Program-made: the position numbers and the translations under genes
Shown here: positions 15,479 to 37,329 of the stretch, piece by piece
How the letters are laid out: each line of letters begins with the position of its first letter
Position numbering within the stretch: position 1 is the stretch's first letter
The notes under the pieces: model-generated
What the model was told of the DNA's origin: nothing
Database searches by the model: none
The model's input: only the letters and a program-made list of their open reading frames with translations
Virus record (IMG/VR): IMGVR_UViG_3300022700_000208
Coordinates: 17,646 to 81,645 of that record
Direction: 5' to 3' (one strand)
Length of the DNA: 64,000 nucleotides
DNA from: a virus

Positions 15479-15802
15479 ATGAATAAGGCGCAGAAACTTA
15501 AGAGTTTGGTTAAAGAAAGATTCAAACATATAAAAGGGAAGTTTCCTGGAATGAGAAAGGAAGTTGAGTGGACCATTACTCCTGTCTCTAATACGGAAGA
15601 TCATATAGTTACAATTCAGTCTGATAAAAGAATTGCTCGAATTGATTTAAAGAGTGGCAAGGCTATGCTTTCTAAAAGCGGAAGAACTACTTTTGTAGAT
15701 TTGAACCCTGCCAGGGGAGCTAAGGAAGTCGATGTTCCCAAAGATATGATCAAAGAACTAGAAAAGATAGGTCCTCAAAAAGGCCCTACGAGACTTGTCT
15801 AA
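15479..15802 (+). CDS. leader-bearing protein (MNKAQKLKSLVKE|R)
   Basis: Shared leader; AAGGAG SD. Confidence 0.65.
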   Translation: MNKAQKLKSLVKERFKHIKGKFPGMRKEVEWTITPVSNTEDHIVTIQSDKRIARIDLKSGKAMLSKSGRTTFVDLNPARGAKEVDVPKDMIKELEKIGPQKGPTRLV

Positions 15803-15814
15803 GGAGGTAATAAA

Positions 15815-16087
15815 ATGAATAAGGCCAGTGTTCTAAAGGAAAAAGTCAATAAATTATCTGAGGCAAAGAAATTTGAGTTCTACGTGAACAAGGATGAGCG
15901 TGGAGAGTTTGAAGCAGATGTTCGCGATCAAAAAGGAAAAACAGTATGGGAAGGTGATACTGAGATGTTCAATGAGCTTATTGAAGATGGATTCATGAAA
16001 AATAAGGAGGATCTTGATGGTCTTGCTGAATATCTTATAGATAATAAGATCCTTCCCAAAGGTGCAGAATTAGTAAAAGCAAATTAA
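15815..16087 (+). CDS. leader-bearing protein (MNKASVLKEKVNKLSE|A)
   Basis: Shared leader; TAAGGAGGT SD. Confidence 0.65.
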   Translation: MNKASVLKEKVNKLSEAKKFEFYVNKDERGEFEADVRDQKGKTVWEGDTEMFNELIEDGFMKNKEDLDGLAEYLIDNKILPKGAELVKAN

Positions 16088-16097
16088 GGAGAACATT

Positions 16098-16316
16098 ATG
16101 AGCAAGGCAAAACAATTGACAGAAAAGTTGGATGTGGATGAGAAGGTCAAAGAAGGTGATACTTTTAAAAAAGGGAATATGGAACTGTCTGTCCAGGAAG
16201 TATCAGCCAGTGGAGTGACCTTTGTGATCACGCAAGGCAAGACAACATCAAAGCCTCTTCAAATGGACAGTATTAAAGATTTTCAGGCTTTCCTTAAAGC
16301 CAATGATTTTAAGTAA
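16098..16316 (+). CDS. leader-bearing protein (MSKAKQLTEKLDVDE|K)
   Basis: Shared leader; TAAGGAG SD. Confidence 0.65.
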   Translation: MSKAKQLTEKLDVDEKVKEGDTFKKGNMELSVQEVSASGVTFVITQGKTTSKPLQMDSIKDFQAFLKANDFK

Positions 16317-16329
16317 TCATTATTAACTT

Positions 16330-18897: not shown

Positions 18898-18899
18898 TC

Positions 18900-19121
18900 A
18901 TGAGCAATACTAGGTTTGAGCCGACAAATAAACTCAGAGTAGCTAAGTGGACAGAGCGGGTGAAAAGCAATGTTGATCCCATGAAACATCCAGTTGGCAA
19001 ACCTATTCCTACAAAAATTGTGGAAAGACAGGCCATTCAGCAACTCTGGTATTGTGTGAAAACAGGCAAAGAAGAGTGGAGATTCCTGGAAGAAGTTAAT
19101 CTAGAGGCATCAGAGGTTTGA
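18900..19121 (+). CDS. hypothetical protein
   Basis: Compact ORF with IQQLW..EEWR motif. Confidence 0.55.
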   Translation: MSNTRFEPTNKLRVAKWTERVKSNVDPMKHPVGKPIPTKIVERQAIQQLWYCVKTGKEEWRFLEEVNLEASEV

Positions 19122-19307
19122 ATGAAGGTAAGAGTGGGAAACGAGATATATGATTCTGAGTACACGTATATTGCTATTCTCCTAAGTGATAAGGACAAAG
19201 ATAATATATCAAGAATGCCTGAGGAAAATAATGTCTATTCTTCATTTCCAGAGGACATGGACTTGGATGAGGTAAGAAAGAGAAATAAAGAGCTGAAGAA
19301 TGAATAG
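19122..19307 (+). CDS. hypothetical protein
   Basis: Compact ORF. Confidence 0.55.
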   Translation: MKVRVGNEIYDSEYTYIAILLSDKDKDNISRMPEENNVYSSFPEDMDLDEVRKRNKELKNE

Positions 19308-20052
19308 AGATTCCTATGGAATTATAGGCCAGATCAAAGGCCCCAATAATCCAATAGAGGTAGAAGGTGGAGATTCCGTCAATTGGGAAGGTCACTGGAT
19401 CTATCTCAATAATGGCCGAGATCCAGGAGGTAAAATAGTCAAGACTACTTCCAGGTATGTGAGTTTTTTTGAGGTGGGCTTTGGGGCTTATGCAAGGCAT
19501 CCCAAGAAAAGCCAAACCAAGCATGGTTTTGGGGCCTATTATAAAAATCCATGGCAGGGATGTATCTCCAGGGACCAGCTAAGAGGAATTCTGGCTGCCC
19601 TTATCTCAGGTGGGGAGTATTTGGCTATGCTGAGGCTTATTCTTCACCATGCCCTGAGAGGCTTCATATTTGCCTACAACACGATTGAAAATGGGGATGA
19701 TCCCGACACAGCCCCCTGGAAGCTACCAGATCTCACAGGGCCTGACATTTGGGCTATGGAGCTACGGGGGTTTGGCCTGGCCAGTTGGCTCTTCTGGCCG
19801 ATACTGTGTCTGCTCGATATCTACATGCTTTTTAATGCAGTGTTCCATAATCATAAGGAAACCCAGCATGTGATCAGTTTTTCTATCACCCTGCTTGTTT
19901 GTGTTGAGAATGTTCCCACCCCCACGAGCTTATTGGCTAAATATGTGATCGACAGGGATGAGCTATTATCAGAGCTTTATAAGTATTGGTGCAATTGGAG
20001 AGAAAGCTGTGAAATCTATCATGCTTATGAAAAGAGGTTGAATGCCCTATGA
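19300..20052 (+). CDS. hypothetical membrane-associated protein, possibly an enzyme
   Basis: EGGDS and SRDQL motifs; hydrophobic C-terminal helices. Confidence 0.55.
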   Translation: MNRDSYGIIGQIKGPNNPIEVEGGDSVNWEGHWIYLNNGRDPGGKIVKTTSRYVSFFEVGFGAYARHPKKSQTKHGFGAYYKNPWQGCISRDQLRGILAALISGGEYLAMLRLILHHALRGFIFAYNTIENGDDPDTAPWKLPDLTGPDIWAMELRGFGLASWLFWPILCLLDIYMLFNAVFHNHKETQHVISFSITLLVCVENVPTPTSLLAKYVIDRDELLSELYKYWCNWRESCEIYHAYEKRLNAL

Positions 20053-20342
20053 GCAAAGCTAATGATCTTAAGAACAAGGTAAAAGACATCAAGATGAAAG
20101 AAAAATCCACTGGGACCACTGGGGTTGGTGGATCGGAAGTCTCCCATACCCATGGGTATGTGATTGATGAAAATGGTAATGGGAAGACCACATCTACCTC
20201 AGAGGGAGAGGATCATATTCATCAGATCACTGAGTATGAGGTTCAGCCTGCACCTCCAGGCAATCATGTTCATCCTTTGGAGAAAAAGGATGATAATGGG
20301 GATGCAGGAAAGCCTATAAATCAGAGAGGTAAAAAGAAATGA
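20049..20342 (+). CDS. leader-bearing His-motif protein (HTH/HIH/HVH)
   Basis: MSKANDLKNKV leader; three HxH motifs. Confidence 0.6.
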   Translation: MSKANDLKNKVKDIKMKEKSTGTTGVGGSEVSHTHGYVIDENGNGKTTSTSEGEDHIHQITEYEVQPAPPGNHVHPLEKKDDNGDAGKPINQRGKKK

Positions 20343-20548
20343 TCTCCCCGTGGTATCTTAGCATGGGCATTGCCACTCTTATGCTTGTGATGATGGATGC
20401 CTACACAAAGAAAAGTCCTGATGTGACAAATATTAGAGATCCATTTACTTTGATGAGGCTTGTTCCTTTTGCTCTTATCCTTGCCATTCTTGGTTGGCCT
20501 CTTATTTTAATGGAGATGGTAGTCAAGCATGTTGTCAGAAAACATTAA
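20339..20548 (+). CDS. small two-TM membrane protein
   Basis: Two hydrophobic segments. Confidence 0.5.
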   Translation: MISPWYLSMGIATLMLVMMDAYTKKSPDVTNIRDPFTLMRLVPFALILAILGWPLILMEMVVKHVVRKH

Positions 20549-20957
20549 GACAGAAGAGGAAGACACATTCTATGATGTGGATGGCAAACTGGCCAAGAAA
20601 TTGGATGGTCCCCCTAAGAATATGAAAAAATCCAAGGAGAAAAAGTTTGCCATGATCATTGGGGGAGATACAGCCGTTGTATTCACCTCCCCTTCGGATA
20701 AGGAAGCCAAGCAGGACACCAAGAATAGAGTTGAAAAGGATGATCTCAAGAATGCTGTCCTGGCTAGAAAGGTGGGAGATCTTCCTGATAGTGGTGAGGA
20801 GATTTTCCAAGCATTTATTTCTTTTGCAGATAAAGACAAAGAGGAAACCAAATCAGCTAAGCTAAAGAACCTAGTTCAAAACACAAGGAATCCTCTTCAG
20901 AATACTCCTTATCCATTTGATAAGAAGAAAAAGAGGAAGCGTTATGAAGAAAGCTAA
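20529..20957 (+). CDS. hypothetical protein
   Basis: Paralogous in part to 29801-30367 (acidic, A..A.V.RKVG); internal KSAKLKNLV. Confidence 0.5.
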   Translation: MLSENIKTEEEDTFYDVDGKLAKKLDGPPKNMKKSKEKKFAMIIGGDTAVVFTSPSDKEAKQDTKNRVEKDDLKNAVLARKVGDLPDSGEEIFQAFISFADKDKEETKSAKLKNLVQNTRNPLQNTPYPFDKKKKRKRYEES

Positions 20958-21234
20958 AAAGCTCAAACAATCAGTTGAGAAAGCCTATGGGCCTGATTTT
21001 GATAATCTTAAGAAAAATCGTGTTGATCTCACCAATGCTGAGAGGGAAAAGATTATGAGATCTCATGCTTATTGGCATCACGGTAGAAAAGGAAGGGCAA
21101 CTCCAGCTATATTCAAAGCAATGATTGGTGGGTGTCCCTATTATGTTCCCCATACTCACAGGGCTTACAGATGCCTTAGAACCTTAGATGGGGCTATCAA
21201 CCAATTCCACAAATACATTAAACAGACAGCATAG
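20944..21234 (+). CDS. leader-bearing basic protein (MKKAKKLKQSVE|K)
   Basis: ATG at 20944 after GAGG SD. Confidence 0.6.
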   Translation: MKKAKKLKQSVEKAYGPDFDNLKKNRVDLTNAEREKIMRSHAYWHHGRKGRATPAIFKAMIGGCPYYVPHTHRAYRCLRTLDGAINQFHKYIKQTA

Positions 21235-21242
21235 GGATTGAT

Positions 21243-21512
21243 ATGATCTCTGAATACCATGAATATGCATTCAGTTACATTGAAAAGACAGCTCAATTGT
21301 ACCCTCAAGTGAATTCTATTACTCTTTTGGACAGAGTTAGAAAGGCAGCCAAATGGGCTAATAAAAAGCATGGGGAAAGAAGAACTCCCTGTAGTGAGTG
21401 TGGAAAGAAAAAATACACTATAAGTGATCGGGTGGATCATCATATCTGTTTCGATTGCTATGTGGGACATGATACCCAGGAAATTATGATGCAAAATTGG
21501 GGAAGTCGGTAA
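21243..21512 (+). CDS. small Zn-finger protein
   Basis: CSEC..CFDC. Confidence 0.5.
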   Translation: MISEYHEYAFSYIEKTAQLYPQVNSITLLDRVRKAAKWANKKHGERRTPCSECGKKKYTISDRVDHHICFDCYVGHDTQEIMMQNWGSR

Positions 21513-21542
21513 ATTTAAAATACAAACAAAAGGAGAATTAAA

Positions 21543-22226
21543 ATGAGCCGAGCTGAGAAGCTTTTAAATGAAATGAAAATGGTTGAAAAGAAGTTAAAGG
21601 ACAAGGATTTTCGCAATCCTCGTGATGCAGTTGAGATGGATGATTTCCAGAAGTTTGCCAAAGACAAGCTCAAGGATAAGCCTGAGGATCTTATCAGGAA
21701 AGGATTCTTTGAGAAAACCAAAGATGGTGAAATCATTCCTTCTAAGAAACTTGCTAAGGAAATGGCTAGTACAGGCAATTCTTTTGATGAGAAGGAAATT
21801 GATGGTTTGACTGATCAGTTAGAGTCAATGATCAGGGATGTTGCTAATAGTGTTATTAAGAAAGTTGCCAAGAAAAGAAATGTCAAACCTAAGGGGATAG
21901 AGGCTGAGGTCAAATTAAATGTTGATCCCAATTCCTTCCAGTCTCCTGCCAAAGTTGAGATTTATTATAAAGGGGAGGAAGAAGAGGTAGAAATTGGATT
22001 TGGTGCTCCTCCTTCTATGGATTTTGATGCAAAGGTTGATGAGTTTGAGGATATGGAATGGACTCTTCTTCTTGATTTTGAATCCCCATGGCATGAATCT
22101 GACGTGAGAGACAATTGGGAGCAGGTTGAGTTACTGAGAACATTGAATGAGCTTGGGGTTGATGATGATTCTGAAGAAAAGCTCAAGAAAGCTGTTAATG
22201 AGCTGATTGATTCTGCTGAGGAGTAA
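21543..22226 (+). CDS. leader-bearing protein (MSRAEKLLNEMKMVE|K)
   Basis: Shared leader; AAGGAG SD. Confidence 0.65.
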   Translation: MSRAEKLLNEMKMVEKKLKDKDFRNPRDAVEMDDFQKFAKDKLKDKPEDLIRKGFFEKTKDGEIIPSKKLAKEMASTGNSFDEKEIDGLTDQLESMIRDVANSVIKKVAKKRNVKPKGIEAEVKLNVDPNSFQSPAKVEIYYKGEEEEVEIGFGAPPSMDFDAKVDEFEDMEWTLLLDFESPWHESDVRDNWEQVELLRTLNELGVDDDSEEKLKKAVNELIDSAEE

Positions 22227-22228
22227 TC

Positions 22229-22531
22229 ATGAGCAAAGCAAAAAGAATTCTTTCAGAAATGGACATGGTGGAGCAGAGGCTGGAGAAGGAACTTCAGCCT
22301 CTCTTTGATGAGCTTGAGAATCAAAGCTTTGTTAAAGACATTGATAAGACTGATGGGACAGAGCTTGATGTGACTGTTGTCGATAAGCGGGGTAAAGCTG
22401 ATGTTCTTACTCTGGCCTGGGATGATAAGAACAATGAATATGTCTGGTCAGATTTCAGCAAGGATACTCCTATCGGTAAGAAACCTGAAGATGCCATCAA
22501 GTGGCTCAAGAAAAAATTGAAGGTTAGGTAA
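22229..22531 (+). CDS. leader-bearing protein (MSKAKRILSEMDMVE|Q)
   Basis: Shared leader. Confidence 0.65.
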   Translation: MSKAKRILSEMDMVEQRLEKELQPLFDELENQSFVKDIDKTDGTELDVTVVDKRGKADVLTLAWDDKNNEYVWSDFSKDTPIGKKPEDAIKWLKKKLKVR

Positions 22532-22786
22532 ATGTCTAAGGCAAAGAAGCTATTGGACAAAGTGGAAAACAATAATGAGGCTGTGGTCAAGGATGCTCTC
22601 AAAGTTATTAAGAAAGCCACTCCTGAGGAGCTTCTCCAGATCATGAGCCAATTAGAAAGAAGATTTGAGGATGATAAGGAACTTAATGGCCTTTCCAAGG
22701 TTATGAGTCAGATAATCAAAAAAGTTTCTAAGGCCAAGTTTGGATCAGTCAAGAAAGTATCGAATAAGTCCCTCATGGTTAAGTAA
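22532..22786 (+). CDS. leader-bearing protein (MSKAKKLLDKVENNNE|A)
   Basis: Shared leader. Confidence 0.65.
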   Translation: MSKAKKLLDKVENNNEAVVKDALKVIKKATPEELLQIMSQLERRFEDDKELNGLSKVMSQIIKKVSKAKFGSVKKVSNKSLMVK

Positions 22787-22796
22787 GGAGAGTGAA

Positions 22797-23117
22797 ATGA
22801 GCAAAGCGAAAAGATTAATTGAGAAACTGGATATTGGTGAAAAGAAGCTTAAGGATTTTGTCAGTGATCTTGAGAAAAACATCAGAGATGTTAAAGAGTT
22901 TATCCCTCCTACAGAAGGTAAAAGAAAAGATGCCATCAGGTCCTTATCCAAATTGGCTGTAGATTCTGTTTTTGTTTTAGCTGAGGAATCGAATAAGTTG
23001 AGAAGTGATGATTTGGGAGATGATTCAGATAGATTTTTGGATAATCTGGAGGATTCTTTAAAGAGTATGGAATCCCAAATGAAACGAGTCAGAAGTAACT
23101 TGAAAAAGTTAAAGTAA
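22797..23117 (+). CDS. leader-bearing protein (MSKAKRLIEKLDIGE|K)
   Basis: ATG at 22797 after TAAGGAG. Confidence 0.65.
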   Translation: MSKAKRLIEKLDIGEKKLKDFVSDLEKNIRDVKEFIPPTEGKRKDAIRSLSKLAVDSVFVLAEESNKLRSDDLGDDSDRFLDNLEDSLKSMESQMKRVRSNLKKLK

Positions 23118-23127
23118 GGAGAGTGAA

Positions 23128-23487
23128 ATGAATAAAGCTAGACAAGTTTTGGAAAAAGCAAAGAAGTTTTCTGAGGCTGTGGATAAGCAAGCGGTCAAAG
23201 AACTCATTCTGTATGCAGATAATGATGGGGATCTTCATAAAAGACAGTTTGTTCCCATTCTTAAAAATCTCAAGAAGAAATGGGATAAAGGCCAATTTGA
23301 TGAGAAGAAAGCAGTCAAAGCCTTTTTGAATTTTGCGGATGAGGCAGCCAAGAAATATGTCAAGGAACATGGTGCTCCTGGGGACAAGGTAAAAGATATC
23401 TTCCCCAAGAAGGTAAGAGAGGCTGCTGCTGAGGAATGGGCAGAGCGTTTTAAAGAACAAGTTGAAAACGACGATCTTCCTCTTTGA
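23128..23487 (+). CDS. leader-bearing protein (MNKARQVLEKAKKFSE|A) with ELILYADNDGDL cargo
   Basis: Shared leader; helical cargo domain. Confidence 0.65.
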   Translation: MNKARQVLEKAKKFSEAVDKQAVKELILYADNDGDLHKRQFVPILKNLKKKWDKGQFDEKKAVKAFLNFADEAAKKYVKEHGAPGDKVKDIFPKKVREAAAEEWAERFKEQVENDDLPL

Positions 23488-23759
23488 GGTCAGGCATGAA
23501 TTTTAAAAAGATAACTCCAGATTTCATTCTTATTGGGGTAGCCATTCTGGCTCTTGTGATCACTGTATATGATCTCATGGCTCTTAATAATGGAGGGACA
23601 GAGGCTACCATTAGCCATGTGATTATGGTGTGGTCTTACAAATATCCTTTATTCACTTGGTTTGCTGGATTCATTCCAGGTGTATTGGTGGGGCATTTGT
23701 TTTGGAGAATTAGGGATAGTAAGAAAACAGACAAGTTAGGAAGGGAGATTCCGAAATGA
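23484..23759 (+). CDS. two-TM membrane protein (holin-like topology)
   Basis: Two TM helices and a basic C-terminus. Confidence 0.4.
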   Translation: MRSGMNFKKITPDFILIGVAILALVITVYDLMALNNGGTEATISHVIMVWSYKYPLFTWFAGFIPGVLVGHLFWRIRDSKKTDKLGREIPK

Positions 23760-24103
23760 GTAAGGCAAAGAAATTCCTTGAGAAAGTCAGTACAAACAAA
23801 TCTGTCAATGAGGGTTCAATCCTTGAGTTCCCAGACATGGCTAAGGAAAATAAAGAGTTTAAGAAGCTCTTTAAAAAAGAAGAGGAAATTCAGAAAAAGA
23901 GAGAAGAGATATCTGACTCTCTTTTAAAAATGGAAGATCTTCTCAATGATGCCCAGAAGCAAGCAAATAAAATGAAAGAATCTGATTTTCCAGAAGGGCC
24001 TAAATCCGCTGAAGGTAAAGAGGGTTATATAGACAGAATTAAGTTTAAACTGAGAGACCTGGACAAAGCTATGGATTATCTCAGAGAGCAAGGATTGATG
24101 TAA
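23756..24103 (+). CDS. leader-bearing protein (MSKAKKFLEKVSTNKSVNE|G)
   Basis: Shared leader. Confidence 0.65.
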   Translation: MSKAKKFLEKVSTNKSVNEGSILEFPDMAKENKEFKKLFKKEEEIQKKREEISDSLLKMEDLLNDAQKQANKMKESDFPEGPKSAEGKEGYIDRIKFKLRDLDKAMDYLREQGLM

Positions 24104-24134: not shown

Positions 24135-25928
24135 ATGGCAAACACCGAAGAGCAAACTCAAAATCAATCATCAGGAGAGCAGGGAAATAGGATAGCTCTC
24201 AATGAAGAGCAGTTAAGGGTTCTTGAGCGTGTATTCCCTGGATTCTCTAATGATGATGCTAATGCTGACAGTATCCTGGAGAATCTTATTGTCGGCTTTA
24301 ATGATCCCAACACTCTTTCTAATATGAGTGCTTCCAGTAGGAATTTTGATTCCTATCAGGTAGCGGCTGCCTATGCTGCTATCTACACCAAGTCTACTCG
24401 CTCTCGTTATGAGCTTATAAGGAAGGTGGAAGAGGCTAGAGATTTCTATTTGGTTGAGACCATTACTCAGCAATTCACTGAGGATGCTCTGAACCCAGAG
24501 ACAGGAACTGGCAATATTCTCAATGTCAGTTCTAAAAATAAAAAGATTCAGCAGGAAATTGATCTGTTGGATGAGCGCTTTGATTTTGATCAGATGGCCC
24601 AGACCATCACTCCTGATATGATCCTTTACGGAGAGTACACTCTCAAGACTGAGGTCAACACTTATGATAAGGACAAGGGATCAGTAAAAAATAATCAGGA
24701 TGGTCAGGAAAGAAAGCTCAGTGAAAAAAGCATTCATGAGCAGCAGATAGATAAGCTTAATAAGCAAAAGTCTGTTGATGAAAAAGAAGAGTCTAATGCT
24801 GGCCTGGTTAATATTCTTGATAATGTTGAGCAGGGATCAGTTATTGCTCTTGAAAAGGATGGCGGTATTGATGGTTATCTTGTGATCAATCATAAGGGAA
24901 GGCTTCAAAAAGCTGAGCCTGCTGATTTCATCAAGTTTGCTCTTCCCAGGACCAGAATACGTATTGATCTTCAGAATGAGGTCAGTGGTGTTGTTAGACA
25001 TTTTGGGGGAAATCCTCAAAGAGAGTCTGTCAAAAAAGAACTTGCTAATGTCCCAAGATTTATTCGGGTTGGACGTTCTATTATTGCTCCCTTTCTATCT
25101 AAGATTAAAGAGCTTCAACTTCTAGAATCTCTTATCCCAGCAACCAAGATATCCAAGTTATCCAATGGAAATATAGTTGGTGTACAGCTTCCTGAGAATA
25201 CTAAAGTTGAACAGGGGATGAATGTTGCCAATCGCCTTGAGCAGGTGATCAATAAAAAAGTCGGTGTTGATAAGGAAAAGGGTGAGCTTAATATTGAAAA
25301 TATTATGGCAACTTCAGGCAGGACTAAATGTATTCCCATGTTTGGGGAGAAGGGCCGCCTTGAGAAACTCGATTTCAAATCTGAGGAGCCTGATGATCTG
25401 TTGAATGCTGTCAAGGAAATGAGAGAGACCATTCTTGACAGTGCAGGTATTCCTCATGAATTGGTTTTTAAATCTGAGGGGGATACTAAGAGTGAGATCC
25501 TTAAGCGTTATGCCAGATATCTAAGAAGGCTCAAGCAAATCCAAAAAGGTATTTGTGATGGTATCAAGCAAATGATCTATATCCACCTGGCCAATAAGGG
25601 AATTGAATTTGATCCAGAAGAAATCAGTGTTGAGTTTGAGAATAAGATTGTCGAGATCGACAACCTGGACACTCTTGAGTTCATGGATACCACGGTGGGA
25701 ATGCTTGATAATCTCAAGAATTTCCTTGGGGAACTCAATGAGGAAGGATCTCCCTTAGAGGGCCGAGTGAATTCTGAATCCTTGGCTGATTTCCTTGAAG
25801 AGCAGCTTAGAATTGTGGGGCTCAATAAAGTTATTCTTCCCAGACAAAAACAAAAGGAAAATCCTCCTGATTATGAACCAGAATCCAAAAAAGAAAATGA
25901 TCCATTAGGTCCAGAACCTGAAATATAA
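24135..25928 (+). CDS. portal protein (T4 gp20-like)
   Basis: Size; position between TerL and protease/MCP; motifs DMILYGEY, GRSII, SAGIP, RYARYLRRLKQIQ. Confidence 0.8.
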   Translation: MANTEEQTQNQSSGEQGNRIALNEEQLRVLERVFPGFSNDDANADSILENLIVGFNDPNTLSNMSASSRNFDSYQVAAAYAAIYTKSTRSRYELIRKVEEARDFYLVETITQQFTEDALNPETGTGNILNVSSKNKKIQQEIDLLDERFDFDQMAQTITPDMILYGEYTLKTEVNTYDKDKGSVKNNQDGQERKLSEKSIHEQQIDKLNKQKSVDEKEESNAGLVNILDNVEQGSVIALEKDGGIDGYLVINHKGRLQKAEPADFIKFALPRTRIRIDLQNEVSGVVRHFGGNPQRESVKKELANVPRFIRVGRSIIAPFLSKIKELQLLESLIPATKISKLSNGNIVGVQLPENTKVEQGMNVANRLEQVINKKVGVDKEKGELNIENIMATSGRTKCIPMFGEKGRLEKLDFKSEEPDDLLNAVKEMRETILDSAGIPHELVFKSEGDTKSEILKRYARYLRRLKQIQKGICDGIKQMIYIHLANKGIEFDPEEISVEFENKIVEIDNLDTLEFMDTTVGMLDNLKNFLGELNEEGSPLEGRVNSESLADFLEEQLRIVGLNKVILPRQKQKENPPDYEPESKKENDPLGPEPEI

Positions 25929-25938
25929 GGAGAGTAAA

Positions 25939-28785
25939 ATGAGTCGAGCAAAGTCACTCCTGAATACATTCAATGAAGCCAGAATTGGTGACGATAAAAC
26001 TCAGCATAATGATCGGTTTGCTGTCCTTGGGGGAGGTAATGCCTATCTTCCAACAGGAAAAAGGCAGACAGCCGAGAAGTTAACTGCTGGGGCTTACGTT
26101 CCTAAAATGAGCCCTCAAGGTGTTGTGTTTGAAAAGGCTCAGATCAACACTGATGAGATCCTTCGCTTTGAGGATGAAAGACAAAAGAAGGTTGTCAAAA
26201 GAGTAGAGAAGTTTTGGGAGCAGGGCCAACGCTATAATCAGTTTGGCTTTACTCATTCCTTCGGTCTTCTCATGGAAGGTCCCCCAGGCAGTGGAAAATG
26301 TCTGGGTAGAGGGACTCCTGTTCTCATGTACGATGGATCTACCAAGAAAGTAGAGGATGTAGTTGTAGGGGATAAATTGATGGGAGATGATTCTACTCCT
26401 AGAACTGTTAAATCAACTACTAGTGGATATGAGCAGATGTACAGGGTTGTTCCTGTAAAAGGTGATCCTTATGTAGTTAATGAATCTCATATCCTTAGCC
26501 TTAAGATGTCCTGCGCAGCAGGAGGAAAAGAAAAAGGTGAGAAGGTAGATATCTCTGTAAGAGAGTATATGGAAAGAAGTAATCATTTTAAGCATTATGC
26601 TAAAGGATATCGAGTAGGAGTCGACTTTGAAGAAAAAGAGGTTCCTCTAGATCCTTATTATCTTGGGATATGGCTAGGAGATGGAAACAATAAGGATCAG
26701 AGTATTTCCAACCCAGAGGAAGAAATTCTTGAGTATCTTTATTCTTTGGGTGAAGAAAGAGGGCTTCATGTATATGCTGATACTCAAGAAGGAAAATGTC
26801 CTTTAATAAAGCTAGTGAAAAAAGAAGGATTATATAATAACCTTCTTGATTCTTTGAGAGAACTTGAGCTTATTAACAATAAGCATATCCCCCATATTTA
26901 TAAAGCCAATTCAAAAGAGAATAGACTTCAGCTTTTGGCTGGTTTATTGGACACAGATGGTTATTATTGTAATGGTTATTATGAAATAATGAGCAATAAC
27001 TCAGTCTTGAAGGATGATATTCTTTATCTTGCAAAATCTCTTGGTTTTGCTGCCTACTATAAAGAAAAAGAGGCTAAGTTAGAAAATTGGGATGAGCCAA
27101 GGACCTATTATAGGATATCTATTTCAGGGCATGTTGATGAGATTCCATGTAAAGTGGAAAGGAAGCAAGCAGAGCCAAGAAAACAAAAGAAAGATGTTCT
27201 TTCTACGGGAATCACTTTAGAGAAGTTGGAAGTTGATGAGTATTTTGGTTTTGAGATTGATGGTAATAGGAGATTTCTCCTGGGGGATTTTACTGTTACT
27301 CACAATACCGTGATAGTAAAACAAGTTCTTGAGGATGCTATCAATCAAGATCATATTGCTCTCATTTGCAGGAATGTGGATGATTTGGCTGAAGGTCTTA
27401 ATGCTCTAAGAGAGGTTGAGCCTGATCGCAAGATCCTTTGTGTGATGGAAGATATTGAAAACCTCATCAAGTTTGGGGATCAATCTCTCATTCAGCTCAT
27501 GGATGGGGACAATAAGCAAGAGGGTGTGTTCTACCTGGGAACTACAAACCATCCTGAGAAGATCCATCCCCGTGTTAAAAGAAAAGGCAGGTTCTCAGAG
27601 ACCATTCATGTTCCGTTTCCTCCCAAAGAGGGAAGACAAGCCTATCTCAAGAAAAAGCTTGGCCAGCATGAGGATGCCAAGGAAATCAATCGCATTGTGA
27701 AAGCCACAGAGGGCCTTAGTTTTGCCCACCTCAGGGACTACATCATTGGGACCTATTGTGAGGAGAGAAACTCGGATGAGGTTCTCAGCGAAATTAAGGA
27801 CGTGTCAGTGGAGGAGCTTAAATCCCAGGGCCTTACCTATGATGAGTTTAAAGAAAAGCTTGAGGAGGCTCTTGGAGTCCAGAGCACCGCTTCATATAAC
27901 CAGTCCTTGAATGAGGATACAGTCCGTACTCCTAGCGATAAAGCCAAGAGCAAATCTCAGCGCCGCCGAATGGAGAGAATGAAGAGCAAATATAAGAAGC
28001 AAAAGAGCGAGTCCAGGGCTTCTAAGCTCTTAGAGGAGATGGATGATTCTGGGTTCAGTCTGATTGATCCTGAAGAGATCAAAAAGGAATTCAGGCAGAA
28101 GATCAAGAACTTTGGCATTGAGGGAGTCAATGTTGAGGATGTCACTGTAGACATGGAAAATGATATCATTGTCAATTTCTCTGATGATGAGGGAGATGAA
28201 CTCCTGGCCATTTTCCAACACAATGAAGAGGAAGCCTGGGTTCTTATTGTCGATGATGAGGAGGAAGCTGAAAATGAAGAGGGAGAAGCCATTATTGTGG
28301 ATCTTAGTCCTCTTCCATTTGCCCTTAGGGATACCCCAATCGGTAAATATTTAGAGCTTGCCACTCTTGAATGGATGAATAAGTCCACTCTTGTTTCCAT
28401 CCTAAGAGCTGGGGAGATCGGATATGATAAGCAGATCAAAGACTATAGCAATAGCTATGATGCTTATGGGAACCGAGTTGTAGCTCCAGCCGAAGCCAAA
28501 GTCAGTGAGGAAGATCTTAAGAAACATCTTCAGGAAAGTGGTGTTGATGAGCTTAAGAGAACAGTTGTCAGAGGAGGAAAGAGAGTCAAACTCCCTGTGG
28601 TGATAAAGAAGAAAAAGAAAAAGCTCACTGGTAAACAAAAGGCAGGCATCAGAAAAGGTGCAAGGAAAAGAAAAGCCAAGAAGGCTCAGATCCAGAGGAA
28701 GAGAAAGAAATCCCTGAAGAAAAGAAAGCAAATGGGCCTTAAAAAGGGAGGTCTTGGGACTCGAAGAAAGCTCAAAGGAAGATAA
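25939..28785 (+). CDS. leader + AAA+ ATPase (with intein) + gp68-like prohead core fusion
   Basis: GPPGSGK|T, VMEDIE, GTTNHP, RKGRF; C-terminal IQRKRKKSLKKRKQMGL. Confidence 0.8.
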   Translation: MSRAKSLLNTFNEARIGDDKTQHNDRFAVLGGGNAYLPTGKRQTAEKLTAGAYVPKMSPQGVVFEKAQINTDEILRFEDERQKKVVKRVEKFWEQGQRYNQFGFTHSFGLLMEGPPGSGKCLGRGTPVLMYDGSTKKVEDVVVGDKLMGDDSTPRTVKSTTSGYEQMYRVVPVKGDPYVVNESHILSLKMSCAAGGKEKGEKVDISVREYMERSNHFKHYAKGYRVGVDFEEKEVPLDPYYLGIWLGDGNNKDQSISNPEEEILEYLYSLGEERGLHVYADTQEGKCPLIKLVKKEGLYNNLLDSLRELELINNKHIPHIYKANSKENRLQLLAGLLDTDGYYCNGYYEIMSNNSVLKDDILYLAKSLGFAAYYKEKEAKLENWDEPRTYYRISISGHVDEIPCKVERKQAEPRKQKKDVLSTGITLEKLEVDEYFGFEIDGNRRFLLGDFTVTHNTVIVKQVLEDAINQDHIALICRNVDDLAEGLNALREVEPDRKILCVMEDIENLIKFGDQSLIQLMDGDNKQEGVFYLGTTNHPEKIHPRVKRKGRFSETIHVPFPPKEGRQAYLKKKLGQHEDAKEINRIVKATEGLSFAHLRDYIIGTYCEERNSDEVLSEIKDVSVEELKSQGLTYDEFKEKLEEALGVQSTASYNQSLNEDTVRTPSDKAKSKSQRRRMERMKSKYKKQKSESRASKLLEEMDDSGFSLIDPEEIKKEFRQKIKNFGIEGVNVEDVTVDMENDIIVNFSDDEGDELLAIFQHNEEEAWVLIVDDEEEAENEEGEAIIVDLSPLPFALRDTPIGKYLELATLEWMNKSTLVSILRAGEIGYDKQIKDYSNSYDAYGNRVVAPAEAKVSEEDLKKHLQESGVDELKRTVVRGGKRVKLPVVIKKKKKKLTGKQKAGIRKGARKRKAKKAQIQRKRKKSLKKRKQMGLKKGGLGTRRKLKGR
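26299..27306 (+). mobile_element. class 1 intein with LAGLIDADG endonuclease (336 aa)
   Basis: CLGRGTPVLMYDG..VNESHIL..LLAGLLDTDG..FTVTHN|T. Confidence 0.92.
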
Positions 28786-28882
28786 TATGAATTATGGCAA
28801 GTGGTATGCCCAGGAAATGGACCGATTGGGTGATGAAATTGAGGATCAAGAAAACCATCGTAAGGATAGAGAGGAGACAGAC

Positions 28883-29221
28883 ATGAGTAAAGCCAAGGAA
28901 CTGACAGAGAAATTCAATAAGGTAGATGAGAAGGACTTAAAGTCTGAGGATCTCAAGGAATTTGCTGATGCTATCAGTGAAACTATAGGCAAAGTTCAGA
29001 ATTTTGTCGATGGGTATCAAAGAGTCAGAAAGAGACTCAATAAGGATATGCAGAAGGCAAAAGACAATGTTGATAATCTTGGCTCTGGAGAGTCTGATGA
29101 GAGTGTTCAGGAAGAGCTTCATGTTCTTGCCGATATGATGCAAGATTTCCTTGAAAGTATGGAGGAGCTTGCGAATGATAACAAAAAAGAAATGGAAAAC
29201 GCTGTAAAGAAACTTAAATAG
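28883..29221 (+). CDS. leader-bearing protein (MSKAKELTEKFNKVDE|K)
   Basis: GAGGAG SD before ATG at 28883; an in-frame upstream ATG at 28787 is also possible. Confidence 0.6.
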   Translation: MSKAKELTEKFNKVDEKDLKSEDLKEFADAISETIGKVQNFVDGYQRVRKRLNKDMQKAKDNVDNLGSGESDESVQEELHVLADMMQDFLESMEELANDNKKEMENAVKKLK

Positions 29222-29236
29222 ATAGGAGTTTGTACT

Positions 29237-29569
29237 ATGTCAAAAGCAAAAGAATTGAAAGAGAAATTCGATAAAACCAAACAAGGTCAGTCTGTATCTG
29301 AGCAAGGGACCAGCCCTAATAATGTTGCTAAGACAAGAGATCAAGTTGCAAAGAGATTAGGTGCAGCTCAGAAAATTATGTCTAAGCCTGATCCTGAAAA
29401 TTTAAAACAGATTGTACAGGGACATCTAGATGCTTTGGATGCTGTTAGGTCAGGTCTTGTTTCCATGTTTAAAAAAGAAGGAAATAAAGACATGCAAAAG
29501 GTAATAGATAAAGTTTCTGACTCAGAAAAAGAACTAAGAGACTTGGTTAAAAAAGAGGATTTTTTCTAA
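29237..29569 (+). CDS. leader-bearing protein (MSKAKELKEKFDK..VSE|Q)
   Basis: Shared leader. Confidence 0.65.
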   Translation: MSKAKELKEKFDKTKQGQSVSEQGTSPNNVAKTRDQVAKRLGAAQKIMSKPDPENLKQIVQGHLDALDAVRSGLVSMFKKEGNKDMQKVIDKVSDSEKELRDLVKKEDFF

Positions 29570-29570
29570 T

Positions 29571-29801
29571 ATGTCCAAGGCAAAAAACTTGCTTACTTTG
29601 GTCTCAGAGGCCAGTAAGCCAAAAATTGAAAAGCTCAAGTCCATTTGGGAGGGCTTAAGCTCTAGACAGAAAAAAGAGTTAATGGCCCTTTATGCTTTCT
29701 CCGAGTTCAATGAAGAGTTTGATCACCTATCTTCTTATCAGAAGGAAGTGATGATCAATAACCTAGAAGTAGCAGAATCATTTTCATCGAAGGAACACTA
29801 A
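29571..29801 (+). CDS. leader-bearing protein (MSKAKNLLTLVSE|A)
   Basis: Shared leader. Confidence 0.65.
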   Translation: MSKAKNLLTLVSEASKPKIEKLKSIWEGLSSRQKKELMALYAFSEFNEEFDHLSSYQKEVMINNLEVAESFSSKEH

Positions 29802-30367: not shown

Positions 30368-30913
30368 TTGGATTTATCCCTTGAGATGCTTTTCACAGTT
30401 TTGGCCCTATTTGTAGGGTTAGCTGGTCTTATTTGGAAGATGGTTGACTCCCTTATCCAGAGACAGGAGTCTGCTAAAAAGCGGATTATTGAATCTGAAA
30501 AGCAATCTAAAAAGGAAGCCTTGGATAGGGAACTTGATGCCAATAAGAGACTTGAGGAAGAAAAGGCCCAGATCCAAAAGGAACTTGAAAAGCAAAAGCA
30601 GCGCCATGTTGATCAGCTCATTCAGGGAATAAGGGAAGAAATATCCAAGCTGGACAAGAAACTAAGTCGTGTTCATGAGTCCTATATAGAGCTTAACACT
30701 AAGTTTGAGAGCAATGAGGACAAATATAATCAGGTCCTTACAGAGGTTCATGAGTTTTTTAAAACCACTAAAGCCAGATTCGACATGCTGGAAAAACAAG
30801 CCAGTAATCATGAGGCATCTATTGAAGACATAAAAACCAGGCTTATGGATATTGGAAATGATTTAGTGATTGTGAAAGATGCAGCCGATAAAGTGAGGTC
30901 AAGCAAAGGATGA
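30368..30913 (+). CDS. N-terminal TM + coiled-coil protein
   Basis: TM LFTVLALFVGLAGLIW followed by heptad repeats. Confidence 0.55.
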   Translation: MDLSLEMLFTVLALFVGLAGLIWKMVDSLIQRQESAKKRIIESEKQSKKEALDRELDANKRLEEEKAQIQKELEKQKQRHVDQLIQGIREEISKLDKKLSRVHESYIELNTKFESNEDKYNQVLTEVHEFFKTTKARFDMLEKQASNHEASIEDIKTRLMDIGNDLVIVKDAADKVRSSKG

Positions 30914-31782
30914 AGTTTCACACCCTAGAAGATAAAAAAATGTTTCTCATTGAATGTGGGAGGTCCGACCTCCTGGATAAGATTAATGAGTCCTACGAGC
31001 CCTCCCAGGAACTTCAGGAACTATTCCTTAAGAAAAGAAGAAAGAAGATCCCCACTCTTAAGAACTTCAAAAAGTCTCAAGCCACATCCCAGCAGTGGAG
31101 GAAGAAACGCTTTAAGATGATGCGTGGCATTAAAGACTTTCATAAATCCACGTCGGGAAAGAGGTTTCACCGCGCCTTAGGTAGGTTCATTGCAACCAGG
31201 GATTTCAGAAGCAAGAGGTTTACCAGGGAGAACTATAATCTAGGAGAGGTGTGTGAGGTCCTCAAAGCCCTCTCAAGCGCTAAAACTCAATCCTACATAA
31301 CCCTGGAGTATTATAAGCCAGCGGACAAACAAGCCGATTTTGAGCTTTTCATAGAGGAGATTGTTCCGATTATCGAACAGATTGAGAAAAGTCTAGTGGT
31401 CGGAAAGGAAATCAGTGAGGAGGAGCTTGATCTGCTGGTCAGGATAACTGATGAGAAGGTGATCCTAGACTACCTGGACAATAGTCAAGGAAGGTTCAAT
31501 GCTCTTCATAGTTTCTGGGCTCACATGAATGAGATTGGTGATCCCAGTGAAATTGGTTTTTATCTTGATACTCTCAATTGCACCAAGCATTTGAATGAAG
31601 AGGGCAGGATTATATCCACGATTGCAGAAAGGACAGGCCACTCTTATCAGGAAGTGGAACGCTCTCATAACAGACATAAGGCCAATTTGGTTAAAGAGGG
31701 GATCAAAAAATACGAAAGTACGAATAATTCGTATTTTCCCCGATTATTTGACGGGATCAAAAAGGACCTTAAACTAGACTAA
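30910..31782 (+). CDS. putative prohead core/head protein
   Basis: Basic segment; position just upstream of the prohead protease. Confidence 0.4.
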   Translation: MKFHTLEDKKMFLIECGRSDLLDKINESYEPSQELQELFLKKRRKKIPTLKNFKKSQATSQQWRKKRFKMMRGIKDFHKSTSGKRFHRALGRFIATRDFRSKRFTRENYNLGEVCEVLKALSSAKTQSYITLEYYKPADKQADFELFIEEIVPIIEQIEKSLVVGKEISEEELDLLVRITDEKVILDYLDNSQGRFNALHSFWAHMNEIGDPSEIGFYLDTLNCTKHLNEEGRIISTIAERTGHSYQEVERSHNRHKANLVKEGIKKYESTNNSYFPRLFDGIKKDLKLD

Positions 31783-31895: not shown

Positions 31896-33380
31896 ATGGG
31901 TGATCCAGCTCAAGATTTAGGTCCTAATTCCAATGAGGTTTTGGGAGTATTTGAACCTGATGCTGGCTTCAGACTTGAAGAAGCAAATGGTGAAGTTGGG
32001 GGAAAGCATGTCTTAGGTCGAGTTAAGGGAACTTTCTTTGTTCCAGAAGGGGTTTCCCGCAATAACCGATACTACCCCAAGGAGTTATGGGAGAGGGTTG
32101 TCCAAGATCCCATGATCAAAAAGCGTCTTGAGGAAAGGCGCATGTTTGGGACCATCAGCCATGAGCAACCCTTGGATGATAAAGCTCTCCTTGATGGAAA
32201 GATCAGCCATATTATCACTGATCTTCAGATCAAGGAAGGAAAGCAGGGATACGGGGAAGCCTTAATACTCGACACCCCTGCTGGGAATATTCTCTATCGA
32301 GTTCTCCAGGCAGGAGCCAAGTTATTTGTCTCCTCTAGGGCCAATGGCCAATTCAAGGGAGAAGAAAGGGGAATACCTAAAGTTGATCCAGAAACATTTC
32401 AACTGAATACTTTTGATTTCGTTATGGACCCTGGTTTTGTTCAGGCTAATCCACAGATGGAAAGTCTTCAGGAAGCGTTGAATAAACTAAAGAAACTTGA
32501 GGAGACTATGGGACAGCAAAATAATAATCAACCAAATCAAGAAAACAATAAATCACAAGGAGATGAGCAAATGGGCCAACAGAATAATCAGGATCTTTTA
32601 GAAAAGCTCTCCAAGCAAAACAGTGACCTGGAGCAGCAACTCGACACTGCCACAAAAGAGGTTGAGCGTCTTAAGGAAGAGAACACCACTCTTACGGATG
32701 AGAACAATAACCTCAAAGAGGAAATGAAAAACCACAAGCAACTTACAGAGGAAGTTGAAAAATATCGAAAGCTTGGAACTCCTGAAGAGATTGAAGAGGC
32801 TTTTGAGTCCGCTGAAAAACTCCATGAGGATAATAAAAAGATCACTGAGGAACTTGGCTCTGCTGAGGAAATTGAGGAATCAATTGATGCAGCTACAAGC
32901 CTCATCGAAGAATACAAAGAGCTTGGCTCTCCCAGTGAGGTCAGTGAAGCTCTTGATGCAGCAGAAAAGACAATTGATGAGTATGCTGAATATGGAACTC
33001 CTGATGAAATCGGTCAGGTCTTTGAACGTGCTGAAAGCATGGTTGAAGAGAAAAAGCAAGAGAAGGAATCCAAAGAGGTTGCTCAGCTTGCTTCTGAAAT
33101 TGGAGTTTCGGAAGAAAAAGTCCGAACTCTTTATGGAAAAGTCTCCAATGAAGAAATCAAGAAAGTTCTTGGGGAAGGCAAGAAAGACTCAGAGAAACCA
33201 GGAAAATCTGAGTCTCTTACTGAGCGCTTCAAGAAAAAAGGAACAAGTGAAAACAAAGATTCCAGTGAAGGTGAAGATGAAGGTGAAAAGAAAACTCCCT
33301 TCAATGAATCTGGAGTCAATCGCTTGTTAAAACGAACAGGTCCTGTCCGCAAGGAAGATCCTGTTGAGAGTCCTCGATAA
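31896..33380 (+). CDS. prohead protease (gp21-like) fused to scaffold (gp22-like)
   Basis: SRNNRYYP, GTISH, ISHII, LDTPAG, VSSRANG, FDFVMDPG; C-terminal acidic coiled coil. Confidence 0.9.
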   Translation: MGDPAQDLGPNSNEVLGVFEPDAGFRLEEANGEVGGKHVLGRVKGTFFVPEGVSRNNRYYPKELWERVVQDPMIKKRLEERRMFGTISHEQPLDDKALLDGKISHIITDLQIKEGKQGYGEALILDTPAGNILYRVLQAGAKLFVSSRANGQFKGEERGIPKVDPETFQLNTFDFVMDPGFVQANPQMESLQEALNKLKKLEETMGQQNNNQPNQENNKSQGDEQMGQQNNQDLLEKLSKQNSDLEQQLDTATKEVERLKEENTTLTDENNNLKEEMKNHKQLTEEVEKYRKLGTPEEIEEAFESAEKLHEDNKKITEELGSAEEIEESIDAATSLIEEYKELGSPSEVSEALDAAEKTIDEYAEYGTPDEIGQVFERAESMVEEKKQEKESKEVAQLASEIGVSEEKVRTLYGKVSNEEIKKVLGEGKKDSEKPGKSESLTERFKKKGTSENKDSSEGEDEGEKKTPFNESGVNRLLKRTGPVRKEDPVESPR

Positions 33381-33469
33381 AGGATTTCTTAGTTAGTTTG
33401 TGGTCTGGACTTCAGGGGCAAACTACGGGGAAACAAAAACAAACCAAACTGACTAAGGAGATTGCGAAA

Positions 33470-34903
33470 ATGCAAGGTCAAATGAATGAAGATTCAAAAT
33501 TACAGGCCATTGATAAAATGGCAGAACAATATTATGAGCGCTATCGAAACAACATGGACGCTCTTGAGCAGTCCTTGAACTGCTCCATCAAAAAAGATGG
33601 CCTCGATGCAAATGATGTTTTTGCATTGGGAAGCCAGCTCGAAAAGTTTGAAAACTTTGTCGAGATGTGTGAGGAAGTCGGTAACACAAACCTTCTTGGC
33701 ACCCTTCCCAAAATCGGTATGGACGTGATCACAGCAGTACATGGTTCTTCCATTATTCCTGTTGTGGCTTCTGTTCAGCCTATTGAGGAAGAGTCTGGCT
33801 TGGTTTGGTTCAAGACTGTTCGCAGTGAAAACACTCGTGGTTCTCAGACAGCAGGCGATGTTGTCCGTGATCCTCGAACAGGCACTGTCTATCCTCAAGG
33901 CTATGCTTCGGGCCGAATTCAGAATGAGCAGGAAGCTACATCAGGTGCTCAGTTCACCTATAGTTTCACTCTCAGTTTTCCTCCGATCCGAAGTGAAAGT
34001 CTCCGTCTTGAGCTTTCTCAAAACTCAGATGTTTTTGCTCGTGATGTTGGCCCTCAGGGTGCTGACAAAAACATCGGGACATTGCTTGGAGCAGGTGTCA
34101 GCGGTACAGTGAATTACACAACTGGCCAAGTTGATGTTGAGTTCACTAGCGATCCTGGCGCTGGCAATATGGTTATGGAATATCAACAGAACTTTGAGCG
34201 TTCTTCTGATATTCCTCAGATCCAGAACTTCTTTGACTCAAAGCAAGTTCGCGCTCATCCGTACACATTGAAAGCCACATTCGGCATGATCCAAGACTTC
34301 ACTATGAGAAAGCGTTTTGGCTTTTCTGCCCAAGACAGCTTGTCAGAAGATCTTGTCACTGAAATCAATAAGGAAGTTGGTGGAGATCTTATCCGCTTGA
34401 TCGACGCGGTTAAGCTTGGCTCTGAGAACTTTGATGCCAGCGCACCTTCTGGTGTTTCCTTTTTCGAGCATAAGCAAACGTACAAAGACGTTCTTGCTCG
34501 GGCCACTACAAACCTCATTAACAATGCAGGTCGTGGTCAGATTTCAGTGCTCATTGCAGGCTTGGATCACACAGCCATTATCCAGACACTTCCTGGCTTC
34601 CAGCGTGTGTCTGATGGTTCTGCTCTTGGAACTCAAGTGATCGGAACCTTGGATGGTATGACAGTGGTTCAGGTGAAGGATACTAACCTTCTTGCAACCA
34701 ATCGCGCATTGGCCATTTGGAAAGGTCCGACACCTTTTGAAGCACCTGCTGTCTGGTCTCCGTTTATGCCTCTTGCCACTACAGGAACTCTTCCTGAGTC
34801 TCCTAACCCGTTAGTTAGCATGAAAGCTGGAGCTGTTGTGGGTGCCGTTGAATCACTGGTTCCTCAGTTTGCCACTGAGATCACTATCAGTAACGCACCT
34901 TAA
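33470..34903 (+). CDS. major capsid protein (T4 gp23-like)
   Basis: SVQPIEEESGLVWF, EDLVTEINKE, AVWSPFMPL; TAAGGAG SD before ATG at 33470; followed by a terminator. Confidence 0.9.
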   Translation: MQGQMNEDSKLQAIDKMAEQYYERYRNNMDALEQSLNCSIKKDGLDANDVFALGSQLEKFENFVEMCEEVGNTNLLGTLPKIGMDVITAVHGSSIIPVVASVQPIEEESGLVWFKTVRSENTRGSQTAGDVVRDPRTGTVYPQGYASGRIQNEQEATSGAQFTYSFTLSFPPIRSESLRLELSQNSDVFARDVGPQGADKNIGTLLGAGVSGTVNYTTGQVDVEFTSDPGAGNMVMEYQQNFERSSDIPQIQNFFDSKQVRAHPYTLKATFGMIQDFTMRKRFGFSAQDSLSEDLVTEINKEVGGDLIRLIDAVKLGSENFDASAPSGVSFFEHKQTYKDVLARATTNLINNAGRGQISVLIAGLDHTAIIQTLPGFQRVSDGSALGTQVIGTLDGMTVVQVKDTNLLATNRALAIWKGPTPFEAPAVWSPFMPLATTGTLPESPNPLVSMKAGAVVGAVESLVPQFATEITISNAP

Positions 34904-37038: not shown

Positions 37039-37329
37039 ATGAGCCGAGCCAAACAATTATGCGAAAAGCTTTCTGGAAAAGATGAAAGTCAGAATACTCT
37101 TGATGAGGGAATGCGCGAGACTATTAAGACCATGAATTCCAAGCAAATGGCTGAAGCTTCAAGAGTAATGCAAGAGCGCATTGATGAAATTCTTGATCCT
37201 AAGGGACAACCTCCTTTTCCTGCTGGTCCCAAGTCAGTAGAGAAGATGCAAACAGCTAAAGAAAAGCTGGACTATGCTGACAAAATGCTTCGCAAAGTCC
37301 GTGAAAGATACGACGGTAAGAAGAAATAA
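37039..37329 (+). CDS. leader-bearing protein (MSRAKQLCEKL..LDE|G)
   Basis: Shared leader; GGAGG SD. Confidence 0.65.
   Translation: MSRAKQLCEKLSGKDESQNTLDEGMRETIKTMNSKQMAEASRVMQERIDEILDPKGQPPFPAGPKSVEKMQTAKEKLDYADKMLRKVRERYDGKKK

Follow-up and report, generated by a model that had tools for sequence, protein, structure and literature searches.

Conserved fusion of a Bcs1/YjoB-type AAA+ ATPase to a leader-bearing protein of prohead-core position in a distant T4-like phage

Comparative sequence analysis identifies a single open reading frame (ORF) of 948 amino acids (aa), at positions 25939 to 28785 (+ strand) of the 64,000-nucleotide stretch of virus DNA analyzed here (the window), as a genuine and conserved fusion in which a leader-bearing AAA+ ATPase is joined to a protein of the prohead-core position that has a leader of its own. 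The window belongs to an IMG/VR virus record of 81.6 kb, for which the CheckV completeness estimate is 52%. The architecture recurs in metagenomic relatives, its C-terminal tail resembles that of the T4 core protein gp68, and relatives of its ATPase are joined to prohead proteases in other lineages.

RESULTS

Anatomy of the fusion ORF

An initial annotation, made from the DNA letters, had read in this ORF a leader, AAA+ motifs, an SLNE/D site, an acidic domain, a VDE/L site, and a basic tail. All of these were located, once each, in one frame open over 948 codons, and a second copy of the leader lies exactly at the coordinates it had been given. The ORF is built as follows.

25939 to 25977, + strand: leader MSRAKSLLNTFNE, residues 1 to 13, ending in the ΦxE motif FNE; the same leader opens ~20 genes of the record.
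25978 to 26277, + strand: small beta N-domain, specific to the family, and the first AAA-fold helices, residues 14 to 113, conserved in gp68-like-fused, protease-fused, and stand-alone relatives and present in the AlphaFold 2 (AF2) model of the relative P0002.
26278 to 26298, + strand: Walker A GPPGSGK, residues 114 to 120, predicted to be completed by Thr457 after splicing (alignment and motif location).
26299 to 27306, + strand: predicted intein of 336 aa, C121 to N456, with a LAGLIDADG homing endonuclease (Pfam Hom_end_hint, 4.4e-18; Hom_end, 2.7e-7).
27307 to 27825, + strand: remaining AAA+ module, residues 457 to 629, with Walker B, sensor-1 TTN, RVKRKGRF, and lid (Pfam AAA; phmmer to P0002; Foldseek to YjoB/Bcs1).
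27826 to 28011, + strand: low-confidence linker, residues 630 to 691, with SLNE/D (SLNED, residues 656 to 660) and a basic stretch; the matching part of the P0002 model has a predicted local distance difference test score (pLDDT) of <50.
28012 to 28038, + strand: internal leader copy SRASKLLEE, residues 692 to 700, aligning with the N termini of stand-alone relatives.
28039 to 28542, + strand: acidic alpha/beta core-protein domain, residues 701 to 868 (family of 212 representatives; phrog_1053; AF2 fold of the stand-alone relative P0010).
28543 to 28551, + strand: conserved ΦxE site VDE, residues 869 to 871, within GVDELKR (868 to 874) and ahead of the tail (alignment of relatives).
28564 to 28782, + strand: beta-hairpin VVRGGKRVKLPVV and basic helical gp68-like tail, residues 876 to 948 (hhalign, 79% and 90%; P0010 pLDDT, 91 to 97).

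Pfam recognized in the ORF a Hint domain, a homing-endonuclease domain, and the C-terminal half of an AAA domain. The interrupting element is classed, on its domains and motifs, as a Hint plus LAGLIDADG intein that is predicted to splice: it carries LGIWLGDGN and LLAGLLDTDGY, begins at C121, and closes with HN (455 to 456) ahead of T457. Its position is an exact insertion relative to intein-less homologues, which read GPPGSGK/T, and because C121 to N456 separates GPPGSGK precisely from T, the spliced product is predicted to have 612 aa and an intact P-loop. The remaining ATPase motifs are ILCVMEDIE (499 to 507), LGTTNHPE (533 to 540), and RVKRKGRFSE (545 to 554). An intein in the P-loop indicates strong constraint on the ATP site. 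The annotation had placed the end of the tail at ...QMGL; this proved to be short, as the tail motif IQRKRKKSLKKRKQMGL (residues 918 to 934) is followed by 14 more residues, KKGGLGTRRKLKGR.

Recurrence of the fusion and stand-alone core proteins

A profile of the C-terminal 259 residues, run against a library of 1.84 billion proteins, gave 212 representatives, 150 of which were listed. The ATPase lies N-terminal to the core domain, with its motifs intact, in 17 of the 150; this conservation in relatives had been proposed as a check of the fusion and is borne out. The other listed representatives are mostly stand-alone proteins of 190 to 290 aa. Two relatives of full length and free of an intein, P0002 (621 aa, 45% identity) and P0003 (555 aa), came from a word-based search. 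The annotation had known of no such fusion. This stands for the literature searched, which held nothing pertinent, in the portions available, on AAA+ ATPases in proheads or fused to prohead or maturation proteases (supplements may hold relevant virion proteomes); it does not stand for the gene family itself, which is common in metagenomes.

Stand-alone forms of the core protein occur in three IMG/VR contigs (L017, L018, and L019), and all three begin with the leader. The gene order in L017 and L019 is portal, small leader genes, stand-alone core gene, a conserved gene for 230 to 290 aa, S77 protease-scaffold, and capsid protein; L018 has the same downstream genes, with no portal identified within the fetched stretch. 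The ATPase of L019 is a separate gene upstream of the portal. Since stand-alone relatives start with the leader at the point where SRASKLLEE stands in the fusion, this internal copy is probably the old N terminus of a stand-alone core protein. Of 16 fused relatives, 11 retain a leader-like motif in the linker, versus 0.15 expected from shuffles; selection therefore appears to act on the peptide as such and not only on the DNA near start codons.

The core domain matches phrog_1053, a family of unknown function, in the C-terminal part of the window protein (3e-5), in P0002 (7e-6), in P0003 (2.4e-7), and in 55 of 68 stand-alone relatives. Its acidic body is predicted to fold confidently (AF2 model of P0010, mean pLDDT of 83.5). 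In a wide structure search of the PDB with the core-protein model, the best match had a Z of 6.0, too low to indicate more than a commonly occurring arrangement, and a weak row at Z 5.0 was a phage P1 head chain (9vz0_I); the ESM Atlas gave no usable match. tblastn of two stand-alone core proteins against phages gave zero matches, and the same search with the C-extein of the fusion matched four records, in the ATPase part only. Two members of the family have unusual architectures: P0105 (532 aa) has the core-protein domain at its N terminus, followed by ~330 unexplained residues, and in P0148 (2581 aa) 10 stretches match a 44-column piece of the domain.

Likeness of the tail to T4 gp68

T4 gp68 is described as a nonessential core protein of ~240 copies that is degraded by gp21 (PMC9958956). 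As the annotation had stated, its gene lies between those for the portal and the protease (order portal-gp67-gp68-gp21); the C terminus given there was nearly right but one residue off, the T4 sequence ending ...TGLSKAKRRQIARKATKTK...QRKRKKALKRRKALGLS. When the core family was compared by hhalign with an alignment of 27 close gp68 homologues, the last 21 columns matched with 79% probability; against a wider gp68 set (T4, RB43, and Aeromonas, Acinetobacter, and Vibrio phages), the match reached 90.2% over 42 columns, with a score of 45.3. Reversed alignments scored 21.1 and 19.0 in composition controls, and column shuffles (30 + 30 + 40) reached maxima of 27.0 and 30.6, so that the real score was attained in 0 of 30, 0 of 30, and 0 of 40 shuffles. 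A permissive, low-confidence hhalign run lined up the ΦxE - V.RGG of the family with the invariant L.E - VK.V..RG of gp68. These comparisons support a resemblance of the basic tail to that of gp68 beyond effects of composition. T4 gp68 itself matches phrog_1049 at 1.7e-71, and the window C-terminal part, P0002, and P0003 match phrog_1053 only. We take the tail and, with it, the gene position of the fusion to be gp68-like, and the acidic body to be a different domain.

Type of the ATPase

Profile matches and a predicted fold assign the ATPase to the classical clade of AAA proteins, and within it to the Bcs1/YjoB type. A PDB profile search returned Cdc48/p97 at 4e-43 and YjoB at 5e-32. Foldseek with the AF2 model of P0002 placed YjoB or Bcs1 chains at all of ranks 1 to 14 (E, 3e-14 to 8e-12), the best match being YjoB 7w42 at 3e-14. 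GPPGSGK/T, VMED, TTN, and RVKRKGRF are present in the ORF and conserved in relatives, all of which have ED in place of DE at Walker B. This exception is described as common to YjoB and Bcs1, and a reading of ED as the mark of a dead ATPase was rejected, since YjoB has ED and is active (PMC9565160). YjoB and Bcs1 are further described as making use of a chamber in their interior for folded clients (PMC9565160). The N-domain here has ~60 to 90 residues and is not aligned by sequence to the 159-aa N-domain of YjoB, the profile match starting only at position 79.

The cultured Xanthomonas phage phiXF1 encodes (L003:5467-9483) a protein of 1338 aa whose last ~300 residues are of this ATPase type; the first 1000 residues gave no match, and the gene adjoins tail-fiber and virion structural genes.

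Fusions of the ATPase to prohead proteases

In P0004, an S77-type protease domain is followed by the ATPase and then by a scaffold-like tail. The 22 proteins closest to the P0004 ATPase comprise 7 with an S77-type and 11 with an S78-like N-terminal protease domain and 4 with neither; the S78 label is unevenly backed, since of 10 scanned, 1 reached Pfam Peptidase_S78 and 4 reached phrog_80 ("head maturation protease"). The gene order is terminase, portal, protease-ATPase fusion, and capsid protein in contig L031, and portal, protease-ATPase fusion, and capsid protein in L023. A third protease type (phrog_18299, head maturation protease, 1.9e-31) is joined to the ATPase in a protein of 1287 aa (L028:8158-12021), which has ~650 further residues of unexplained nature. 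In a quick tree, the protease-fused ATPases form one clade (26 rows, support of 99), and the gp68-like-fused ATPases fall in the other half with some stand-alone ones. Searches for the genome context of further protease-ATPase proteins did not find P0284 in IMG/VR or P0280 in genome_contigs, and a metagenome scan gave only an unrelated match. The predicted head-core location of the ATPase gains independent support from these fusions.

Leader peptide and candidate processing sites

The leader of the ORF is not a chance match, because ~20 + strand genes of the record, situated around the terminase, portal, and head genes, open with it (M-[SNK]-[KR]-A-x-x-L). A ΦxE motif ends within residues 5 to 22 in 18 of 20 leader genes; the figure for internal control windows is 38%. 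Because the leader genes are paralogous, the binomial P for this difference (2e-6) makes it look stronger than it is. Across 68 stand-alone core proteins, ΦxE is conserved at two alignment positions only (58 of 68 at each), namely, at the end of the leader and just ahead of the basic tail. The pretail site is kept in 12 of 16 fused relatives, and a linker ΦxE occurs in 10 to 11 of the 16.

The prohead proteases of T4, phiKZ, and SPN3US are reported to cut after Glu, and the capsid-targeting propeptides of T4 are reported to be 10 to 20 residues long (PMC5694885). The leader has the form of such a propeptide, i.e., a short N-terminal peptide ending at a candidate Glu protease site, and from the conservation of the motif and the specificity of T4-type proteases we infer that processing may occur at the ΦxE sites. 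Should the leader serve as a targeting signal, ~20 proteins of this phage would be candidates for packaging.

Genome context

The genes of the head module place the window phage as a distant relative of T4. The following features surround the fusion.

14319 to 24103, 28883 to 29801, 37039 to 37329, and 49095 to 49331, + strand: small leader genes (candidate packaged proteins), with the shared leader and ΦxE within ~20 residues.
24135 to 25928, + strand: portal gene, directly upstream of the fusion; the annotated portal of Rhizobium phage RHph_Y65 matches it at 31% identity (E, 9e-83).
25927 to 25934, + strand: ribosome-binding site AAGGAGAG, overlapping the portal stop (sequence reading).
31896 to 33380, + strand: prohead protease (Peptidase_S77), a gene of its own, with a scaffold-like tail of coiled coil; presumed processing enzyme (Pfam PF03420, 8.9e-10; phrog_207, 3.2e-32).
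33398 to 34903, + strand: gp23-type major capsid protein (Pfam Gp23, 1.6e-12; 43% identity to Rhizobium phage capsid proteins).

The order is therefore portal, fusion ORF, and, ~3 kb further downstream, the S77 protease. The fusion starts 10 bases past the portal stop codon, in agreement with the annotation, which had put it directly after the portal; the window portal ORF is also homologous to ORFs preceding the core genes in L019. Among cultured phages, the nearest capsid proteins belong to Rhizobium phages of the Kleczkowskaviridae. These phages have a homologue of the window portal and lack the fusion gene. No phage in GenBank matched when near-identical DNA was sought.

Several neighboring genes deserve mention. 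The program-called TTG start of the ORF at 28754 to 29221 overlaps the end of the fusion gene; its likely true start is ATG 28883, which is preceded by a GAGGAGA site and gives a product beginning MSKAKELTEKF... Between the core genes and the protease lies a head-module gene for a 290-aa protein (30910 to 31782) that is conserved in L017, L018, L019, and RHph_Y65 (gp281, hypothetical) and is wider-spread than the gp68-like gene. Also inside the head module, a 181-aa protein (30368 to 30913) has a hydrophobic N-terminal segment, a long coiled coil, and a weak match to a tape-measure PHROG (2.3e-4). The large terminase (855 aa, 16330 to 18897) is matched by terminase models only from about residue 404; its N-terminal part has intein-type PHROG matches, and the gene apparently also carries an intein, near its ATPase motif. 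In L019 (10493-13389), the capsid gene is in two pieces (113 and 342 aa) split by a 419-aa ORF, an intron- or homing-endonuclease-like insertion.

DISCUSSION

Role of the fusion protein

The simplest account of these findings is that the ATPase works in or at the prohead core and that different lineages fuse it to different core components. Because its partners differ (gp68-like protein, S77 protease, and S78-like protease), the conserved feature seems to be the core location rather than a link to the protease, and this narrows the possible mechanisms. For the window, where the fusion is real and conserved, the account that we favor, and to which we would give about an even chance, is that the protein is built into the prohead core, that the ATPase serves there as a chaperone or remodeler, and that the S77 protease cuts the polyprotein. 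The intein would have to splice out, restoring the P-loop. By way of its core-protein half and its leaders, the protein would become part of the prohead's scaffolding core, where rings of the ATPase would act, at our best guess, as an ATP-driven chaperone or remodeler that handles core and scaffold proteins during assembly or clearance. The S77 protease, encoded by a separate gene, would then cut after Glu at the ΦxE sites at the end of the leader, in the linker, and ahead of the tail.

Several observations weigh against this proposal. ΦxE is a common motif in the Glu- and Lys-rich proteins of this phage, as the control windows show. The stand-alone ATPase relatives in four contigs (L004 to L007) have neighborhoods without recognizable head genes, and the ATPase family is therefore not head specific throughout. 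Not all contigs with a stand-alone core protein show an ATPase, these contigs being fragments that are 10 to 28% complete. The likeness to gp68 is confident over the last ~40 residues only: the family profile found in the whole T4 genome a sole candidate, the 3' end of gene 68, at an E of 0.63; none of 68 stand-alone members matched a gp68 PHROG; and BLASTP of three fused proteins against T4 gp68 was not significant. The gp68-like C terminus put forward by the annotation is thus upheld for the tail and not for the domain as a whole. A fold search of BFVD with the stand-alone core-protein model gave 0 matches at an E of ≤0.001. Finally, in the AF2 model of P0002, strand 137 to 141 runs almost directly into helix 144 to 157, and the usual aromatic pore loop of threading unfoldases seems to be missing from the ATPase; a chaperone or translocase of folded proteins is therefore more likely than a threading unfoldase.

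Other roles have to be weighed against a function in the core. We think it unlikely that the ATPase is cargo, carried into the head by the leader and the core half, freed by the protease, and ejected along with the DNA for a task in the next host, in the manner of T4 Alt and the internal proteins. The leader does resemble T4-type capsid-targeting propeptides in its length and terminal ΦxE (PMC5694885), the existence of ~20 small leader genes suggests that many proteins are packaged, and the phiXF1 relative has the ATPase at the end of a long protein encoded among structural genes. However, in unrelated phages the same ATPase clade occupies the portal-protease-capsid slot in fusion with the prohead protease itself, which points to a role in making heads, and rings of six or seven folded subunits would need to be dismantled before ejection. 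Slightly less probable again is a place outside the shell, where the ATPase would be a cytoplasmic assembly chaperone for core or capsid proteins and the fusion would provide only coexpression or docking at the nascent core. YjoB is described as a cytoplasmic chaperone that holds specific substrates in its chamber (PMC9565160), and stand-alone phage relatives occur beyond head modules; against this, the ATPase is covalently joined to a protein that has a conserved leader, a core-like acidic domain, and a gp68-like tail, which puts it among core components, and in relatives it sits between a protease domain and a scaffold-like tail.

Quite improbable, in our judgment, is a role in which DNA is bound by the basic tail and the target of the ATPase is DNA or the packaging machinery, e.g., at the portal, rather than proteins. 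Such a role would suit the position of the gene directly after that for the portal and a tail that is very basic and confidently predicted to be helical, but the ATPase belongs to the classical AAA clade, its nearest relatives act on proteins, and no DNA-binding family was matched. That the fusion is an assembly or frameshift artifact or a decaying gene, as might be suspected of a record that is a single metagenomic contig, is hardly credible, because the architecture, with intact motifs, is shared by 17 of the 150 listed, independent representative clusters; the frame is moreover open throughout and has a strong ribosome-binding site.

A role in the core, if extended to the other lineages, would have wider consequences. 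We advance tentatively, as a possibility we hold short of probable, that Bcs1/YjoB-type rings are present in the prohead cores of several lineages, tethered to the protease or to a gp68-like protein, and give an ATP-dependent step inside the closed shell. If this is true, folded core, scaffold, or cargo proteins would be handled for the protease or for exit, and head maturation would be energy dependent before DNA packaging begins. To our knowledge, scaffold removal and prohead maturation have been described as ATP free before the terminase acts in every tailed phage studied; the fusions suggest that, in these phages, the making of the head involves an energy-using step of a kind unknown among phages studied so far. 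The window offers a compact test case, with one ORF, a separate protease, and predicted cut sites.

Comparison with known systems

The ATPase shares with Bacillus subtilis YjoB and mitochondrial Bcs1 the ED Walker B, the sensor-1 Asn, and the Arg-rich second region of homology; unlike these proteins, it has a far shorter N-domain, has no membrane anchor, and is fused to virion-assembly proteins. Lon and FtsH carry an AAA+ module and a protease in one chain and follow the same logic, in which an AAA+ ring and a protease work together inside a closed compartment. The phage ATPase is, however, of another subtype, the S77 and S78 folds are unrelated to those proteases, and in the window the ATPase and the protease are separate proteins. 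The protease-ATPase fusions (P0004, P0278 to P0297, L023, L028, and L031) have the same ATPase family and N-domain and a prohead-core partner, whereas the ATPase of the window is joined to a gp68-like core protein, with the S77 protease encoded on its own.

T4 gp68 (phrog_1049; Pfam PF26830) is likewise encoded between the portal and a gp21-type protease and has a ΦxE site, V..RG, and a basic helical tail of the form L[ST].K...I.RKA ... RKRKK[AS]LK.RK..GL. It is a protein of 141 aa that stands alone, in contrast to the domain of ~260 aa found here, which has another acidic alpha/beta body, confidently folded in the model, a leader, and the fusion to an ATPase. The T4 capsid-targeting proteins IPI to IPIII and Alt, as described in two reports, also have a short N-terminal propeptide that ends at a protease site, one propeptide being common to many otherwise unrelated small genes near the head genes (PMC5694885, PMC3012670). 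The leader of the window phage differs from that propeptide in sequence and in having one internal, conserved copy within the fusion.

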